64,000 nucleotides of DNA from Gammaproteobacteria bacterium (GCA_050116575.1 JASFOJ010000001.1:43811-107810); one strand, 5' to 3'; shown: positions 57,025 to 64,000, numbered from the stretch's first letter. The notes: generated by a model not told the origin, from the letters alone. Numbers and translations: made by a program.

Positions 57025-58002
57025 TCAGTAGATATGGACCACCAGCACGTGAGCCAGGGAACACACCAATAATAAATACATCACCGGCACGTGAAACAGT
57101 CGCCACTTACTCAATAGTTGCTCGCAGGATCGCACGAGCGAGACATCCATCAGCGTACTGATGTATCGTTTGAGATACTGTTTTTCCATCGCGATTGTAG
57201 CTTGCAGTGTCTGTTGATCCCAGTTGCCCCGCCTGGCGACCTCTATCAATACCCGGGTAATCTGATCACCCACCGCCACATAACAGGCGGCGGCCTGGGC
57301 GCGTACCAGTAAATAGGCATACGGGATGTGAAACACGGTTTTAGGCTGTATGAGACATGTTGTGGTTAACCGTGACAGGTGTTTGCGAATAAGCTCGCTG
57401 TCGTATTTCACCAGCGACTCAAACAACTGGTTTTCTTCACGGTCTATTCGCGCCAGCTTGCTATGCATGGTAAAAGACAAGCGGGTAAACAGGAACCGAC
57501 CCAACGCCCCGCTGCCGACGATCAGAACCATGGCGATAATGGCTATCAGGCTGTTAATGGACTGTATGGCAAAAGTCGAGTGGAAAATAATCAGCAAAGG
57601 ACCGGTTAAGCCGGCACCCAAATGCAGGTAGTACCAGGCTTCAAGTTTGCCGGCGTTTCTCAACACAGGCAGACGCTTGCGCAGCGAATACGTCAATGCA
57701 ATCAACATCAACAAACCACCGGCAAGACCTGTGTTATATATAAAATCATAATCGGCAATGGCATTGAACTGCCCCCAACGTATCCACGCTGACGAGAGGA
57801 TAACGGCAATAACGGATGAAACGAGGAAAAATTTGCGTGATGAGGCCCGGGAAGCTTCATTTTTCGATTCGTTAAATTGTCCCGGGTATTTCTGCTTTAA
57901 AATGGCAACCGCGCTGACGATGCCTTTATTTGCTTTGGTAACCTCTTTTTTTGAAGCATTTGAGCCTGAGTCAGCCCTTGACGATTCGTGATTCATGGAC
58001 AA
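57025..58002 (-). CDS. hypothetical inner-membrane protein (4 TM + cytoplasmic C-terminal domain)
   Basis: Hydrophilic Ser/Lys-rich N-terminus, four hydrophobic helices, and a ~140-aa C-terminal soluble region; no family recognised. Confidence 0.4.
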   Translation of the reverse strand: MSMNHESSRADSGSNASKKEVTKANKGIVSAVAILKQKYPGQFNESKNEASRASSRKFFLVSSVIAVILSSAWIRWGQFNAIADYDFIYNTGLAGGLLMLIALTYSLRKRLPVLRNAGKLEAWYYLHLGAGLTGPLLIIFHSTFAIQSINSLIAIIAMVLIVGSGALGRFLFTRLSFTMHSKLARIDREENQLFESLVKYDSELIRKHLSRLTTTCLIQPKTVFHIPYAYLLVRAQAAACYVAVGDQITRVLIEVARRGNWDQQTLQATIAMEKQYLKRYISTLMDVSLVRSCEQLLSKWRLFHVPVMYLLLVCSLAHVLVVHIY

Positions 58003-58500
58003 CCCCCGACGCTTGTAGTTTTAAGTAAACCACCCTGATATTGGGTGCGTCCTTGCGTTACTGCTTTCCTGCCCATTCACACAATGTGTGTCCGGGAAGC
58101 ATCGAGAAGTGAAAACCGGAGACAAGCAGCGCCGGATCAGGCTTGAGACAGACAAACGGATTGCCTGTGTTCACTAACCCCCACTGGTCCCGCCCCTGGC
58201 CGCACCGATTAATTCCCGAGTGTTCACATTCGATGCCTGGTACGACTGCTTTTTCATCGACGCATGCCCCCTGCTTGCAAGGATGAAAAAGCGCTTAAGC
58301 ATAATCATTTACTTATTTACTGCATAAGTAATGCTTATTTATGAGTATATTTGCTGAGGATTCAAAGTCAACGCGACCACGACATTCTCATTTATTGCTG
58401 ACACCTGGATAGGAATATTCTTACTTTGTCGCTTTCACACCATTGAAAATATTGATTTTACGTTGCGGGATATTCAGGTAGACGCGCAACAAAATAATTA

Positions 58501-58597
58501 CCAATCGCCTACAAGGGGCTCCTATGCATAAATCACCCACCTGGGTGAATTCCGAGGTAGGAGCCAGCCTTGCTGGCGATAACGCGCTGCGGGTATA
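58501..58597 (+). repeat. 97-bp repeat copy 1 (RBS + 24-codon mini-ORF, bounded by 7-bp inverted repeat)
   Basis: tATCGCCtacAAGGGGctcctATGcataaatcacccacctgggtgaattccgaggtaggagccagccttgctgGCGATAacgcgctgcgg. Confidence 0.6.
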
Positions 58598-58693
58598 ACC
58601 CACCCTTTCGCACTATTCGTTCCCCGCCGGTGTTCTGCGCCAGAAACATAATTTACCGTTCGTGCAGTCACGACAAGTTGCTGCACGGAATAA

Positions 58694-58790
58694 ACATCTA
58701 TCGCCTGCAAGGGACTCCTATGCATAAATCACCCACCTGGGTGAATTCCGGGGTAGCAGCCAGCCATGCTGGCGATAACGCGCCGCGGAC
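58694..58790 (+). repeat. 97-bp repeat copy 2 (about 90% identical to copy 1)
   Basis: tATCGCCtgcAAGGGActcctATGcataaatcacccacctgggtgaattccggggtagcagccagccatgctgGCGATAacgcgccgcgg. Confidence 0.6.
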
Positions 58791-58844
58791 AGCTAGCCGT
58801 GGTCGACGCCGTCGGTATCAGTGATTTCGCTTGAGTAGATGAAT

Positions 58845-59837
58845 TCAGTGACCGGTCGAATCGTCTGACGGTACGGACGCCAGGCGCTGTTCAATATGGG
58901 AAAGTGTATCGCGGTAGCTGGCAACATATTCGCCACCCAACTGCACAGCCTGTTGTGCGTGCCGCTGCGCAGCGGTTAGATTCCCCTGCTCCATTAAAAC
59001 CTGCGCCAGGTTGTTGTGTGCCGGCGCATAGTCGCGTTTCACGTCCAGAACCTGACGATAAAACTGTTGCGCCTGTTGAAGTTGTCCTCTTAGGTAACAA
59101 ACGTTACCTAAAGCCATGAGTGACACCAGTGACCGCGGCCAGCGTTTGACGGCGGCCCGGTAAGCCGTGTCGGCCAGTGCCAGTTTGCCCTTGCGCTCAA
59201 AATAAGCAACTGCTTTGACATACTGTAAGGGCGTCACCGACGCAGGCATCTCACCCGGCCGCATCACCACCATGGCCCATAGCTTGGCCCGCCGCCAGGT
59301 TCGTTCAAAGGTTTCCAGGCTGATCACATGCTGCTGGATCGTACCGGAGTTAAGCATAATCTCATCATTTGCCGGGTCCATTCCGGTCACCACGGCATAG
59401 TGCCAACGCGGAATCCAGTCCAGCCCCAGGTTCTGGAACACCAGCACCGGATGGCCGGCCTTTAATTCGTCCAGCAATGCGGGAAAACCCGGCTTTATCA
59501 CAAAGGGAATGCGATCATAGTAACGCGCCGCCGCCACCATTTCCGCCTGGAAACTGCCCTGGCGTTCCGGCACATAAACCAACGGCACCAGATCGTCAGG
59601 GGTGACCGGTACTCCCGCCCACTTCAACAACGTCGCTAATGCGGCGGGACCACACTGGTACTCTTGCTGCGGAAAAAAAGGAACATTATCAACTTCGCAA
59701 CGAGGCAACTTGTCCCAGCCGGCGGACTGGCGAAGCTTGTCGATTTGCAGCGTAGTACTGCAGGCGCATAAAAATAAAAGGCTGCCTAAGCAAAGCAAGG
59801 CAGCCCTGACATTCCTGGTCATAACGTAAAACAACAA
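58845..59837 (-). CDS. C39-like papain-fold peptidase domain fused to TPR repeats (lipoprotein; PA2778-like)
   Basis: Lipobox LLFLCAC; QQEYQCGPAALATLL (Gln oxyanion + catalytic Cys); downstream WHYAVVTGMD (candidate His/Asp); C-terminal TPR repeats. Confidence 0.55.
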   Translation of the reverse strand: MLFYVMTRNVRAALLCLGSLLFLCACSTTLQIDKLRQSAGWDKLPRCEVDNVPFFPQQEYQCGPAALATLLKWAGVPVTPDDLVPLVYVPERQGSFQAEMVAAARYYDRIPFVIKPGFPALLDELKAGHPVLVFQNLGLDWIPRWHYAVVTGMDPANDEIMLNSGTIQQHVISLETFERTWRRAKLWAMVVMRPGEMPASVTPLQYVKAVAYFERKGKLALADTAYRAAVKRWPRSLVSLMALGNVCYLRGQLQQAQQFYRQVLDVKRDYAPAHNNLAQVLMEQGNLTAAQRHAQQAVQLGGEYVASYRDTLSHIEQRLASVPSDDSTGH

Positions 59838-59839
59838 TT

Positions 59840-60256
59840 CTAGTCGTATACGGTTTTCTTCACGAAGGGAAAAACGTCGGTGAAACCCATCAGGTCGGTA
59901 ATCAGCAATACAATGAATATGAACGCCAACGTCCCCACGACACCGCCACCGGCCGGCGCTTCATCTATCTGATCGGCAAAAGCCTGAATTTGTTGGTCAG
60001 TCATATTTGCCAGGCGTTGTTTGGCGTCCTGTGGATCGACACCCAACGCGATCAATTGGGCTTGCACTTCCCGCTGCGACAGCAGGTCATTAATGCGCTG
60101 CTTGTTCAGTTGCACAACCTGCTGGTCAACAATGTCTGTGGTCGTCACAATACCGGCCATTGCCGCCTGCTGAAAACTCACCAGCAAAAAGCAAACCAGC
60201 GAAATCCTGGCCGTCAATTTCATTAATGGCGTCTTAGTCGTCATAGTTTTCTCCAT
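59840..60256 (-). CDS. small secreted/C-terminally anchored protein (PA2779-like partner of the C39-TPR protein)
   Basis: Signal peptide MTTKTPLMKLTARISLVCFLLVSFQQAAMA and a C-terminal hydrophobic helix VVGTLAFIFIVLLITDLMGF. Its stop is 3 bp from the upstream gene. The likely start is M at 60256; the longer ORF runs to 60334. Confidence 0.4.
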   Translation of the reverse strand: MEKTMTTKTPLMKLTARISLVCFLLVSFQQAAMAGIVTTTDIVDQQVVQLNKQRINDLLSQREVQAQLIALGVDPQDAKQRLANMTDQQIQAFADQIDEAPAGGGVVGTLAFIFIVLLITDLMGFTDVFPFVKKTVYD

Positions 60257-60341
60257 GTTAAGTCCATTGTTTACACGATGGTAGCCGATATTGGCGCCAA
60301 CACCAATATTCAACCACACGTAGCGCAATCGCATACGTGTA

Positions 60342-60692
60342 TCAGTGATATTTATTTTTTTTCTGCTGTTCCTGTTGAATATCCGCTTCGAGAACTTTCA
60401 GCTGGTCGGCCAACTGGCGAATGGCGGGCGCAATCTCTTCTTCAACTTTTTTCTGATTCTTTTTTATATCCCTGTTAATCTGCATCATCACCACGAACAC
60501 GCCTACCACGGGCAATGCCCAGACCAGAATGACAAACTGCTTTTTCTTCCTGGCATCGTGCAATTGTGATAGCCGAATGATCCGCGTACTCATCACATTC
60601 AAATATACAACAGCTCCCACCAGTACCGCTCCAAAAATCCATAAAAAAACAGTCAAAACATCCACCTCGTTGCGGCTGGTTTGCGACGGCAC
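60342..60692 (-). CDS. small membrane protein (2 TM + coiled C-terminus)
   Basis: 116 aa with two hydrophobic helices and a Lys/Glu/Gln-rich C-terminus. Confidence 0.4.
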   Translation of the reverse strand: MPSQTSRNEVDVLTVFLWIFGAVLVGAVVYLNVMSTRIIRLSQLHDARKKKQFVILVWALPVVGVFVVMMQINRDIKKNQKKVEEEIAPAIRQLADQLKVLEADIQQEQQKKNKYH

Positions 60693-60919
60693 TGCGCTCC
60701 TGCATTGGGCTGACCGGGTTGAACGGCGCGCCCACGGTGCCGGATTTAACGATTTACCAATTATTTACTAAATAATTGCCTATTAATAATAGAGCATTGT
60801 CAGGCTCAGATCATGCCCGCCACCAGCGCCATACAAAATTTTGTATGAATATCACACATATTGCCGCTGGTGTCGCGCCACCGTTCGGATTTTCATGATT
60901 CGTCACATTTTGAGACGAG

Positions 60920-62455
60920 CTATTGCACAAGCACCTGGTATTTGAGATCGAAATTGGCGTTTGACGTATTCATATTGCCCGTCATTTGAATACGCCAATT
61001 CGTCACATTGGCGTCATAGCCCGCCGGCGCCCCTCCGCCGCCGGAAACCGGTGTATAGGTATAAGTTGCGCCATTATCGTTGGAATAAGTCGTGGTCCCG
61101 ATTGTTAGTCCCGACGCCGGTGTGCCATCCACCAGTTGAAAAGGCTGACCGGCTCCGTAAGAATTCAAACCAAACATAATATATGGACTTAACTGGTCGT
61201 CGATCACTACGGTATAGGCGTTATCACCACCGGTGTTGGTAATATTTAGTGTATAAGTCACCACGCCTCCCGGATTCACCGACGGCGACGAGGCATATTT
61301 CACCATGGTCAGAACCGGAACCGGTTCTATGGCGACGGTGACAGTGGCGCTGTCATTGCTGCTGTCTTCGTCGGTTTGATCCGATGCACTGAGGGTTGCC
61401 GTGTTGTCGACACTCATGATGACCGGTACAACACCGGCAGTAACATTGATCGTCAGCGTATACGTTGTATTGGGTGCTATAGTCGGTATATTCCATTGAT
61501 CAGGAACACCGTTACTGTCCGAATCGTCAAAGGTCGTGCCGGCCTGCGCGCTATGACTGTTATAAGTCACTTGTGAAGGCAACACGTCGGAAATCACAAT
61601 GTTGGTAAAATCAATAATCGACGCGTTATAAACCTCCACGGTATAGGTGAAAGACTGGTTGCCTTTAATAGTGGAAACGGTCGCGCTTTTTGAAATCTGC
61701 AAGTCCTGGGGAAACAGCTGGCCACCCGCCGGCCCGTCCATATTATCAATAATCCGGCTGGGAATGTTCTGGCCGTTGGACGACGATATATGAAACTTGA
61801 GATTGGAAGGCTCACTTAGTCCCAGATTGGTCCACGACAATATGGTTTCCATGGCCAGGCCGGAGGATGAACCGTAATTGGTACTGTACAAACTGGTCTC
61901 GTTGGTTTTATCGCCGGGCATCGTATATCCGTCGCCGTTGCCACCGCTATCAACCAGGGGATCACCCCCGGAGGCGCTTGCTACATAGTCGTAAAGTACC
62001 GCGACCGTTGACTGATTGCTGCCCTGCCATGATACCCGCAAGACCTTTTCGCCGGACTGTAACAGACCATCCGGATCGGTACCCGCCACACCGCCGGTGG
62101 TGGTATCCATGTAAAACCACCAGTCGGTCGTGTTGGTGGATGACGCCCAACGCTCCACGTAGAAATAAAGGTAGGTGTTGTCCCAGGTAAAGGAAAACTT
62201 GCGCAAGTCCCGGCCGGTGCTGGACAGTGGTTCATCCAGGTCGTTGCCGCTACCATCTTCCGCGTCATCGCTATACTGGCCTGAATTATTAGTTATATCA
62301 CCAGCGGGGGTGTAAGTATTGGCATCGGTGTCATACCAATCGGTCATCACCCCGTCCATGGTAATGGTACGTTCGATGTACGCAGCCTGGGCCTGGGACA
62401 GCACCCCCAACAGCAACCAGATAGCAGTGGTAAATTTTCCGATGACCCGCATCAT
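60920..62455 (-). CDS. secreted DUF11-type repeat (Ig-like) surface protein
   Basis: Signal peptide ...SQAQAA; Thr/Ser/Asn/Gly-rich; repeated TYTLTINVTAG / VTYTLNITNTG segments typical of DUF11 conserved-repeat domains. Confidence 0.5.
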   Translation of the reverse strand: MMRVIGKFTTAIWLLLGVLSQAQAAYIERTITMDGVMTDWYDTDANTYTPAGDITNNSGQYSDDAEDGSGNDLDEPLSSTGRDLRKFSFTWDNTYLYFYVERWASSTNTTDWWFYMDTTTGGVAGTDPDGLLQSGEKVLRVSWQGSNQSTVAVLYDYVASASGGDPLVDSGGNGDGYTMPGDKTNETSLYSTNYGSSSGLAMETILSWTNLGLSEPSNLKFHISSSNGQNIPSRIIDNMDGPAGGQLFPQDLQISKSATVSTIKGNQSFTYTVEVYNASIIDFTNIVISDVLPSQVTYNSHSAQAGTTFDDSDSNGVPDQWNIPTIAPNTTYTLTINVTAGVVPVIMSVDNTATLSASDQTDEDSSNDSATVTVAIEPVPVLTMVKYASSPSVNPGGVVTYTLNITNTGGDNAYTVVIDDQLSPYIMFGLNSYGAGQPFQLVDGTPASGLTIGTTTYSNDNGATYTYTPVSGGGGAPAGYDANVTNWRIQMTGNMNTSNANFDLKYQVLVQ

Positions 62456-62660
62456 GGGCGAAACAAGAAAAGCTATTAATTCCCTTTAGTTAGCGGCGGG
62501 AAACTTCGATTACTAAAGAACTATATGCAGGATCCATACACGGTCAAGGATAAGAAGGCATTTATTGTCTAAATAATATATCAATATAATCAACAAGATA
62601 CGCTCAACGGGGCTGTAGCAATCGGGAGGAAGATGCAGTTTTCGACTGCCGGAAAATGGA

Positions 62661-62688
62661 AAGCGCCTGCCTTTTCAGGCAGGCGCTT
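62661..62688. terminator. hairpin terminator between convergent/tandem genes
   Basis: AAGCGCCTGCC ttttc AGGCAGGCGCTT, immediately 3' of the minus-strand gene ending at 62710. Confidence 0.5.
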
Positions 62689-62709
62689 GCAGCTAGAGCT
62701 TGGAACTAC

Positions 62710-63993
62710 CTACTCGCCGGCTTTGATCAGCTTCTTTACGAAATTGGTGTCATCGCTGTCGCTGCAGGTCTTCAGTTTATGGTGGTGGTGTTTATGATGG
62801 CCGTCATCCTTCACGCAGGGAGGCGCAACCACATCCTTAACATCGATCAACCAGGTTGCATCACCTTGTCCGTCAGTTTCACCGGTGCTTTCCGGATGCT
62901 GCACGTTGATAATGAACTGGGTGGGATGCCCTGGACGGAAGATCATACCGGTGTTTTCCGCGCCTTTCACCTGCAGGCTCATGAAATGATCCAGGGACTC
63001 GGCAACACCATCGCCATTCGCGTCACGAAGGAACCAAATATCGCCGCCAATGTTGTCGCCATTAGGTTTGTCTTCCACCACGTAGATGTTACCTAACGCA
63101 TCCTGGGCCAGGTTATCCGGGGAAGAAAGATGGCCGGTTGTGCCAGCATAACCTAGGTTCTTCGGCGTAGCGGCTTCGCTGGCCGCCAAACGTACCATGG
63201 TCTCGCCATTACCCAATTCTTCAACGGAATAAACCGCATTTTCCGAGGTCGCATTAAAGTAAAGTACTTCATGACCATTGCGCAGGTAACCGACTTCCAC
63301 ATCTTCCGGTCGATCAAATGGTGTACTGCCGATTTCGTCAGCTGCAGCACGGCCACCTCGGCTTGCATTATCGAACGGATCAGCTGCTGTTAATGCAACA
63401 CCGTCTGCATCAGTCAAGGCAATCCATCTGGCCATGCCTGTACGATCTCCTGCTGCGTTACCATTGATGCTGGGATCACCCGTAAACGCGTCGGCGGCGA
63501 GAACAAATGTCTGTCCGTTACTATAGTCGCCTGCTACGCTTGGCACAAATTTGTAAATGGAACCGGAATGGTCCTCATCAACAAAATACAAAGCCGTGCC
63601 AGCATGATTAAAACGCAACCCTTCGTGAGATACATTGGGAATACTATTCAACTCATTGACGATCACGGCTTCACCAGCCGCCACATCGGCCATGGGATTG
63701 ACCACTTCGAATACACGCCCCTGGCCGGACCACTCTTCGGCCACTAACAGGGTGTCCACGGGAGTCCAGGTGGCCGGGTCCAGTGCACCATAGTCATTAC
63801 TCCAGTCGTTGTTCGGCGCTTGACCGGCTCCGTCACCATGGAACAAGTTAACCGCTTTGTCGGTTTCAGTGTCATAACGCGTAAGACCGGCGCCGTACTG
63901 AGTTTCGTGGGGCAGAAAGATATACCGGCCAGTGGGATCAAAGGCACTCATATCGGTCATAGAAGCATTGCTGCCAAGACCGGGCACACGCAC
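62710..63993 (-). CDS. PhoX/DUF839-like beta-propeller protein with His-rich C-terminal tail (5' end outside window)
   Basis: The C-terminal region ...SPDNLAQDALGNIYVVEDKPNGDN...FRPGHPTQFIINVQHP resembles the PhoX-family C-terminus. It ends with a HHKHHHHK tract. The N-terminus is truncated by the window edge. Confidence 0.45.
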   Translation of the reverse strand: MRVPGLGSNASMTDMSAFDPTGRYIFLPHETQYGAGLTRYDTETDKAVNLFHGDGAGQAPNNDWSNDYGALDPATWTPVDTLLVAEEWSGQGRVFEVVNPMADVAAGEAVIVNELNSIPNVSHEGLRFNHAGTALYFVDEDHSGSIYKFVPSVAGDYSNGQTFVLAADAFTGDPSINGNAAGDRTGMARWIALTDADGVALTAADPFDNASRGGRAAADEIGSTPFDRPEDVEVGYLRNGHEVLYFNATSENAVYSVEELGNGETMVRLAASEAATPKNLGYAGTTGHLSSPDNLAQDALGNIYVVEDKPNGDNIGGDIWFLRDANGDGVAESLDHFMSLQVKGAENTGMIFRPGHPTQFIINVQHPESTGETDGQGDATWLIDVKDVVAPPCVKDDGHHKHHHHKLKTCSDSDDTNFVKKLIKAGE

Positions 63994-64000
63994 AGTGGAT

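Follow-up and report, generated by a model that had tools for sequence, protein, structure and literature searches.

A PA2778/PA2779-family peptidase and its small partner in a gammaproteobacterial gene run: a two-gene module with a candidate double-glycine cleavage site

At one end of a 64,000-nucleotide stretch of DNA from a Gammaproteobacteria bacterium (GCA_050116575.1, JASFOJ010000001.1:43811-107810; hereafter the window), five genes running in the same direction on the minus strand encode predicted envelope proteins, among them a cysteine peptidase and a small protein encoded directly upstream of it. Which of these genes work together, and on what does the peptidase act? The initial annotation had read all five as one envelope cluster, had likened the peptidase and its neighbor to the PA2778/PA2779 pair, and had suggested that the peptidase might process or chaperone the adjacent DUF11 protein; as checks it had named profile hidden Markov model (HMM) searches, gene neighborhoods in other genomes, and a structure prediction of the peptidase with its partner. 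We find that the functional unit is almost certainly the two-gene pair only, and we tentatively propose that the peptidase cleaves its partner at a double-glycine-type site. The five open reading frames (ORFs) are present as described and are designated here A to E:

58845..59822, minus strand: A, PA2778-family lipoprotein cysteine peptidase, 325 amino acids from the likely start ATG at 59822, with the motif QCGPAAL (longest ORF 58845-59837, minus strand, 330 amino acids from a TTG at 59837)
59840..60244, minus strand: B, PA2779-family/DUF6627 partner, 134 amino acids from the ATG at 60244 (longest ORF 59840-60334, minus strand, 164 amino acids)
60342-60692, minus strand: C, small protein with two hydrophobic, putatively transmembrane (2-TM) segments and a charged helical tail, 116 amino acids
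60920-62455, minus strand: D, secreted DUF11/CLIPPER protein, 511 amino acids
62710-63993, minus strand: E, distant PhoX-family beta-propeller-like protein, an ORF of 427 amino acids cut by the window end, with the tract HHKHHHHK near its C terminus

The most likely start of B is the ATG at 60244, which has a GGAG Shine-Dalgarno sequence 8 nt upstream and gives a protein of 134 residues. The partner with a signal peptide was thus rightly recognized, while its length (139 residues had been given) and its distance from the peptidase gene (3 bp had been given) need correction, since the stop codon of B ends 2 nt before the longest A ORF and 17 nt before the ATG of A. The two genes lie in different reading frames. 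The five genes occur in identical order on Logan contig L001 and on a JGI metagenome contig, and on both of these full-length E has 502 residues.

Peptidase and partner across genomes

Both members of the pair fall into curated families. Protein A scored 330.7 bits against NCBIfam NF033920, the PA2778 family cysteine peptidase (cutoff, 150; model positions 1-254 of 255), and also matched Pfam Peptidase_C39_2, Peptidase_C39, and many TPR families, the last of these over residues 205-306, which amounts to about three TPR repeats; the C39-like papain-fold peptidase fused to TPR repeats that had been read from the QCGPAAL motif was thereby recovered. B scored 127.2 bits against NF033919, the PA2779 family (cutoff, 40), and 102.3 bits against Pfam DUF6627 (PF20332; cutoff, 27), so that the likeness to the PA2778/PA2779 pair was borne out. 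The protein listed at NCBI from a gammaproteobacterial metagenome-assembled genome as a PA2778 family cysteine peptidase (P0121 in our set) is 100% identical to A. With named and curated families and an identical protein annotated in GenBank, the pair is already known. The literature searched on PA2778, PA2779, and DUF6627 yielded passing mentions only and no functional study.

The B family is large, with 3,775 cluster representatives (50% identity) at an E value of ≤0.001 and at least 2,277 at ≤1e-10; among the best 150 of the 3,775, nearly all homologues are 126 to 142 residues long and none is a natural fusion of B to A.

The linkage of the two genes was assessed in two sets of loci. For the genome set, one genome per GTDB species was searched with an alignment of the B family, and 80 loci were kept, from gamma-, beta-, and deltaproteobacteria; for the metagenome set, an alignment of A was compared with metagenome contigs, giving 80 loci, 74 of which had enough flanking sequence to look for B. 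Together these are referred to as the 160 pair loci. The A gene lies directly downstream of the B gene, in the same direction, in 73 of the 80 genome loci. When the search started from A, B adjoined it in 72 of the 74 metagenome loci, upstream in 67 and downstream in 5. All-against-all clustering of the neighboring ORFs yielded no third conserved gene beside the pair and no conserved transporter next to it; the next commonest clusters, each found in at most 15 loci, were generic (ABC transporters, GGDEF/EAL proteins, histidine kinases, and ZapA). Homologues of C, D, and E were present in 0 of the 160 pair loci. The neighborhood check set beforehand thus did not uphold the five-gene envelope cluster, and a five-gene operon was ruled out. 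Relatives of the large M48 protein encoded upstream of E (described below) and of the two genes downstream of A were likewise sought in the 80 genome loci and found in none. Taken together, these data leave little doubt that the functional unit is the two-gene B-A module, whose products are members of the PA2779 and PA2778 families.

A candidate cleavage site in the partner

We then considered what the two proteins might do to each other. The features of A and B that matter here are as follows:

59253..59684, minus strand: C39-like papain-fold domain of A, residues ~47-190
59652-59654 (Cys57 codon) and 59400-59402 (His141 codon), minus strand: predicted catalytic residues of A, together with Gln52 (oxyanion-hole position) and Asp149
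58893..59234, minus strand: TPR domain of A, residues ~197-310
59945..59956, minus strand: P97-A98-G99-G100 of B, proposed double-glycine-type cleavage site
59855..59941, minus strand: conserved hydrophobic C-terminal segment of B, residues 102-130, comprising a predicted ~20-residue helix and then T-D-V-F-P-F-V-K-K

A combines a C39 papain-fold domain, whose catalytic residues are intact by sequence, with a TPR domain. In its alignment Q52, the stretch Q56-C57-G58-P59-A60, and W140-H141 are invariant and D149 is nearly so, the Cys motif being kept in 117 of 120 homologues and the His motif in all 120. A search for solved structures related in sequence returned only TPR matches and none for the C39 part. 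The structure comparison listed the following entries, each with its value:

3erv, C39-like peptidase: 18.3
8z4h, PeiR: 17.0
5xe8, ComA peptidase domain (25% identity): 17.0
6mpz, double-glycine protease: 16.8
8vp3, PCAT1: 16.5

The signal peptide of A ends in a lipobox (L-C-A-C) in which Cys21 is invariant, and a lipobox was found in 108 of the 120 homologues. Since none of these 108 has an aspartate at lipoprotein position +2, the Escherichia coli +2 rule predicts that A is anchored to the outer membrane, with a tether of only ~30 residues.

B consists of a signal peptide (residues 1-30, ending in A-x-A), four short helices (residues 31-95), the sequence P-A-G-G, a hydrophobic C-terminal segment, and a basic tail. 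P-A-G was found in 191 of the 196 B homologues that could be scored at this position. The residue that follows it in these 191 is glycine in 160, alanine in 18, serine in 11, and another residue in 2, so that 189 of 191 carry G, A, or S, and G99 itself is invariant across 77 B sequences. Double-glycine sites of C39 peptidases have a strict glycine at position -2 and glycine, alanine, or serine at position -1. As far as its sequence goes, the P-A-G-[G/A/S] motif of B fits this type of site. Conservation continues beyond the motif, where a helix is predicted at residues 101-121: the C-terminal third of the protein holds most of the invariant columns (F110, T116, D117, T122, and F127), and V112-L114, G120, F125, and P126 are nearly invariant. 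A search of solved structures with the B profile gave nothing significant (best E value, 0.24, for RseA). Two loci carry two tandem PA2779 paralogues upstream of the peptidase gene (L003, 9971-10875; L006, 9959-10869), both of which keep P-A-G-G and the conserved C terminus.

The structure prediction of peptidase and partner, proposed by the initial annotation, was made with AlphaFold2 on a typed concatenation of B and A, because the two genes are in different frames and no natural fusion could be read; the alignment was unpaired, with 36 B and 45 A homologues. Models were compared by predicted local distance difference test (pLDDT) and predicted template modeling (pTM) scores. The joint model reached a mean pLDDT of 88.8 and a pTM of 0.83, with residues 31-90 of B at 89 to 95, and placed a helix at residues 83-95 of B, just before the motif. 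B alone, despite a deeper alignment of 76 homologues, gave a mean pLDDT of 61.3 and a pTM of 0.36, with residues 31-95 at 47 to 72. As the helices of B were confidently predicted only with A present, we read this as a predicted complex, in which the helical region of B probably binds A directly. The A-G-G of the motif stayed below a pLDDT of 50.

From these elements a mechanism can be put together. B would be exported by Sec, and its helical region would dock onto the lipoprotein A. This docking would bring the G-[G/A/S] site, adjacent to the hydrophobic segment of B, up to Cys57 of A, and A would then cut after G-[G/A/S], in the manner of double-glycine C39 peptidases acting on their substrates. 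Such a cut would yield two products, a ~70-residue helical fragment and a conserved hydrophobic peptide ~34 residues long. That A cleaves B at this motif we put forward as a tentative assignment, a little short of an even prospect, and the mechanism as a whole, a self-contained peptidase-substrate module, strikes us as evenly poised. More speculative, though still a serious possibility, is the fuller picture of a transporter-independent double-glycine module of the envelope, in which a Sec-exported, membrane-tethered B docks on the TPR/C39 lipoprotein and is cut after P-A-G-[G/A/S], so that either the ~34-residue micropeptide or the ~70-residue helical factor would have a physiological role of its own.

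Several observations weigh against cleavage of B by A. The A-G-G of B is below pLDDT 50 in the model of B alone as well as in the joint one, so that the scissile site is not confidently placed in the active site, and the literature searched gave no report of cleavage by a member of the family. The helix before the motif does not have the hydrophobic spacing at positions -4 and -7 that is seen in bacteriocin leaders, position -4 being an invariant proline. The ~30-residue tether of A, if A is indeed held at the outer membrane, may not let it reach as far as the surface of the inner membrane, where the site would lie. Six of the 80 genome loci (L015, L021, L024, L028, L044, and L061) have B without a detectable A in the fetched flanks, which extend 1.3 to 10 kb downstream depending on the contig, and P-A-G-[G/A] is readable in the four of these whose sequences were printed (L021, L028, L044, and L061); in a seventh locus without A, L043, the contig ends right after the B gene. 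Finally, two proteins of the B family, P0445 (276 amino acids, locus L172) and P0456 (286 amino acids, locus L171), have a domain of the OmpA family (scores of 39.7 and 65.5 bits, respectively) ~45 residues past the hydrophobic segment. Given a signal peptide and a single out-to-in helix, this domain would be cytoplasmic, which is odd for a peptidoglycan-binding domain. These fusions fit a simple out-to-in anchor poorly and cast doubt on a plain membrane-spanning topology for the B family.

The same data can be read differently, the best-surviving alternative being that B serves to tether A to the membrane, to regulate it, or to inhibit it, binding A through the helices of B, while A acts on other envelope proteins or peptides. 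We consider this unlikely but worth keeping in view. It accords with the joint AlphaFold2 model, in which the helices of B but not A-G-G are placed with confidence, and with the conservation of B, which peaks in the hydrophobic segment and not around the cut site; moreover, TPR lipoproteins such as NlpI are adaptors of periplasmic proteolysis (PMC5686067 and PMC11211486). What a mere tether hardly explains is the near-invariance of G-[G/A/S] (189 of 191), and no other conserved neighbor hints at a different substrate.

Improbable in our view is a second alternative, in which the motif, hydrophobic segment, and basic tail of B form a sorting signal, so that A would cut B and pass the helical fragment on to another acceptor (a lipid or peptidoglycan, for example), in the manner of rhombosortase, exosortase, and sortase systems. 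The C terminus of B does have such a tripartite build (motif, hydrophobic stretch, and Lys/Arg), one dedicated enzyme gene stands beside one target gene, and the acyl-enzyme intermediate of a cysteine peptidase could in principle accept a nucleophile other than water. C39 enzymes, however, are known as hydrolases, the C terminus of B matched none of the known C-terminal sorting-signal models, and its hydrophobic segment is far more conserved than is generally the case for sorting signals. Of these readings we give the most weight to cleavage of B by A after G-[G/A/S].

Neighboring genes

The remaining genes of the run were compared with the same loci. C has the two hydrophobic segments for which it had been called a 2-TM protein, and a charged C-terminal tail is visible in its sequence; it matched no family in Pfam or NCBIfam. 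It lies upstream of the pair in the close relatives L082-L087, and of 81 loci just 3, L001 among them, have a small 2-TM ORF at its position. On that count C was rejected as a general partner, and it is a clade-specific addition outside the widely conserved module.

D scored 93.8 bits against Pfam DUF11 (PF01345; cutoff, 24.6), with two copies at residues ~251-374 and 380-424 onward, and 49.7 bits against TIGR01451, which confirmed its description as a secreted DUF11-repeat protein. The protein has an N-terminal domain of ~240 residues, of unknown kind, followed by two DUF11/CLIPPER immunoglobulin (Ig)-like domains. Pfam has renamed DUF11 as CLIPPER, which is described as a stalk domain with a CnaA-like Ig fold, found in surface proteins and often containing an isopeptide bond (bioRxiv 10.1101/2025.04.25.650565). 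D itself has a P-A-G-G at residues 242-245, between the N-terminal domain and the first CLIPPER domain. In 115 full-length homologues this stretch reads G-P-[A/G/S/N]-G-[G/N]-Q-L-F-P, the alanine being kept in 45 and the second glycine being asparagine in 23. D homologues were also found in two Alcanivoracaceae genomes and, standing alone, in one of Moraxellaceae, with no PA2778 or PA2779 nearby. Owing to this weak conservation and to the occurrence of homologues in contexts without the pair, we treat P-A-G-G in D as a probable loosely conserved Gly-rich linker, and D was rejected as a substrate cut at that motif; the suggestion that the peptidase processes the neighboring DUF11 protein was thus not supported.

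At the two Alcanivoracaceae loci (L168, 137-9497; L169, 8001-17512), the D homologues adjoin a CLIPPER/CarboxypepD_reg/OmpA protein of 1,805 to 1,812 residues and two unknown genes, of ~380 and ~420 codons. This may be a surface-fiber gene cluster.

E, described at the outset as PhoX-like with an HHKHHHHK tract, has this tract and scored 61.4 bits against Pfam PhoX (PF05787; cutoff, 24), the match covering only profile positions 207-514 of 515; with this, the C39-like, TPR, DUF11, and PhoX assignments had all been matched in the HMM searches. E matched nothing in NCBIfam or among PDB sequences, and neither D nor E had a sequence relative among solved structures. "PhoX-like" is therefore a fair label for E, while "PhoX" is not established.

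In close relatives, in which B is 56 to 68% identical, the order C-B-A is kept together with a gap of 680 to 830 bp, a membrane protein of 320 residues, and a reversed Sel1 gene, and synteny runs on into DUF1249, fliA, and recR; the shared order is ordinary local synteny. The D gene adjoins the pair in one such lineage (L082), a second has a D fragment of 57 residues at the start of the contig, ~4 kb upstream, with ABC-transporter genes between, and E is absent from all the close relatives. D and E are thus incidental neighbors of the pair, and C, D, and E are linked to it by local synteny only. Two signals between E and D, both from consensus scans only, bear on the same point:

62661..62688, minus strand: terminator-like hairpin just past the E stop codon, with a 12-bp stem containing 8 G-C pairs
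62520-62547, minus strand: promoter-like site preceding the D gene

Against this background it is very improbable that the five genes form one envelope system in which A processes or chaperones D. Their common direction in the window, the D gene beside the pair in L082, and the P-A-G-G at a domain boundary of D would agree with such a system, but C, D, and E are missing from all the pair loci, the D motif is poorly kept, D homologues in Alcanivoracaceae and Moraxellaceae do without PA2778/PA2779, and the terminator-like and promoter-like sites part E from D. Least credible of all is that A is a type VI secretion system (T6SS) toxin with a neighboring immunity gene, as suggested for PA2778 by a transposon-directed insertion sequencing (TraDIS) screen that listed it, without follow-up there, as a toxin candidate encoded upstream of a gene depleted of insertions under active H1-T6SS (bioRxiv 10.1101/733030). 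Against this reading, the lipoprotein signal peptide of 108 of 120 homologues implies Sec/Lol export into the cell's own envelope instead of loading into the T6SS, the conserved partner is an exported protein too and is encoded upstream, and no T6SS genes or conserved downstream gene are found nearby.

Some further features of the region were noted. Just beyond the right end of the window and upstream of E, on the same strand, lies the gene for a protein of 1,599 residues (L001, 1518-6317, and likewise on the JGI contig; also L082, 921-5624), whose only annotated part is one Peptidase_M48 domain (35.9 bits over residues 223-462) and which is kept in one close relative. On the other side of the run, positions 57025-58002 (minus strand) encode a multipass membrane protein of 325 residues with no Pfam family; it is very well conserved in the close relatives (E values of 1e-160 to 1e-173), with its gene always placed after the peptidase gene and the long gap, but the wider set of loci lacks it. 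In the window, the gap of 840 bp that separates the peptidase gene from the gene after it holds two copies of a ~100-nt imperfect palindrome (58493-58592 and 58689-58788), which are 90% identical and spaced by 196 nt. Both copies fold into long hairpins on either strand (z scores of -3.8 and -5.3), and neither has an Rfam match. No further copy was found when the 35-nt core was sought in the window with up to 3 mismatches, or when 20-nt exact matches were sought in 87 loci, except in L001; close relatives have a gap of similar size without the repeat. The palindrome pair looks like an element of the repetitive extragenic palindromic (REP) or miniature inverted-repeat transposable element (MITE) type. 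No tRNA and no credible Rfam match were found in 57900-64000.

Three of the syntenic contigs (L085-L087; GCA_975968695.1, GCA_975847815.1, and GCA_975962695.1) carry proteins labeled at NCBI as belonging to 'Kaarinaea lacus', a Nostocales cyanobacterium. They share synteny and 53 to 70% identity with the window (2-TM protein, partner, peptidase, membrane protein, and Sel1), and they probably come from an associated proteobacterium and not from the cyanobacterium.

Comparison with known systems

As a discovery in this window the pair carries little weight, given its curated families, the name already in GenBank, and a larger cluster that is not conserved. The family is, however, widespread in Proteobacteria, including P. 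aeruginosa PAO1, and the analysis yields for it a cheaply testable hypothesis, namely, a Cys57-dependent cut of B after the near-invariant G-[G/A/S], with docking through the helices of B. If true, double-glycine processing would extend from the cytoplasmic domains of ATP-binding cassette (ABC) exporters to a free-standing envelope lipoprotein with one dedicated substrate.

The closest known system is the PA2778/PA2779 pair itself, named after the genes of P. aeruginosa PAO1, with which A and B share architecture, the order of partner and then peptidase, tight spacing, and scores far above the cutoffs. There is no difference in kind, the upstream 2-TM gene being a clade-specific extra.

In its presumed mode of action, the pair works most like the double-glycine C39 peptidases, yet outside ABC-exporter systems, since it lacks a transporter and its peptidase leaves the cytoplasm as a lipoprotein. 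Compared with the C39 domains of ABC exporters (ComA, LahT-type AMS/PCAT, and PCAT1), A is not fused to an ABC transporter and has a TPR domain, and its candidate substrate B uses a Sec signal peptide. In contrast to bacteriocin leaders, B has its invariant proline at -4 in place of a hydrophobic residue, and the part of B that follows the site is a hydrophobic, membrane-type segment, unlike the secreted peptides of exporter substrates.

A C39 protease at work outside the cytoplasm has a precedent in FapD of the Pseudomonas Fap amyloid system, which is periplasmic and catalytically active (PMC5557850). FapD resembles A in being a C39 peptidase that stands alone and has its presumed substrates encoded next to it (PMC5557850); it differs in that it is part of a fap operon of six genes, which includes an outer-membrane channel, and has neither a TPR domain nor a PA2779-type partner, and no fap genes are present here. 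In the NlpI-Prc and NlpI-MepS systems (PMC5686067 and PMC11211486), a TPR lipoprotein likewise recruits a specific envelope protein to a protease, but there the TPR adaptor and the serine PDZ protease are separate proteins, whereas here the TPR domain and the cysteine peptidase form one polypeptide. Lastly, the GlyGly-CTERM/rhombosortase, PEP-CTERM/exosortase, and LPXTG/sortase systems share with the pair, as is generally known of them, a C-terminal motif, a hydrophobic stretch, a basic tail, and an enzyme gene beside the target gene. They differ from it in the class of their enzymes, and B is set apart by the strong conservation of its hydrophobic stretch and by a C terminus outside the known sorting-signal HMMs.

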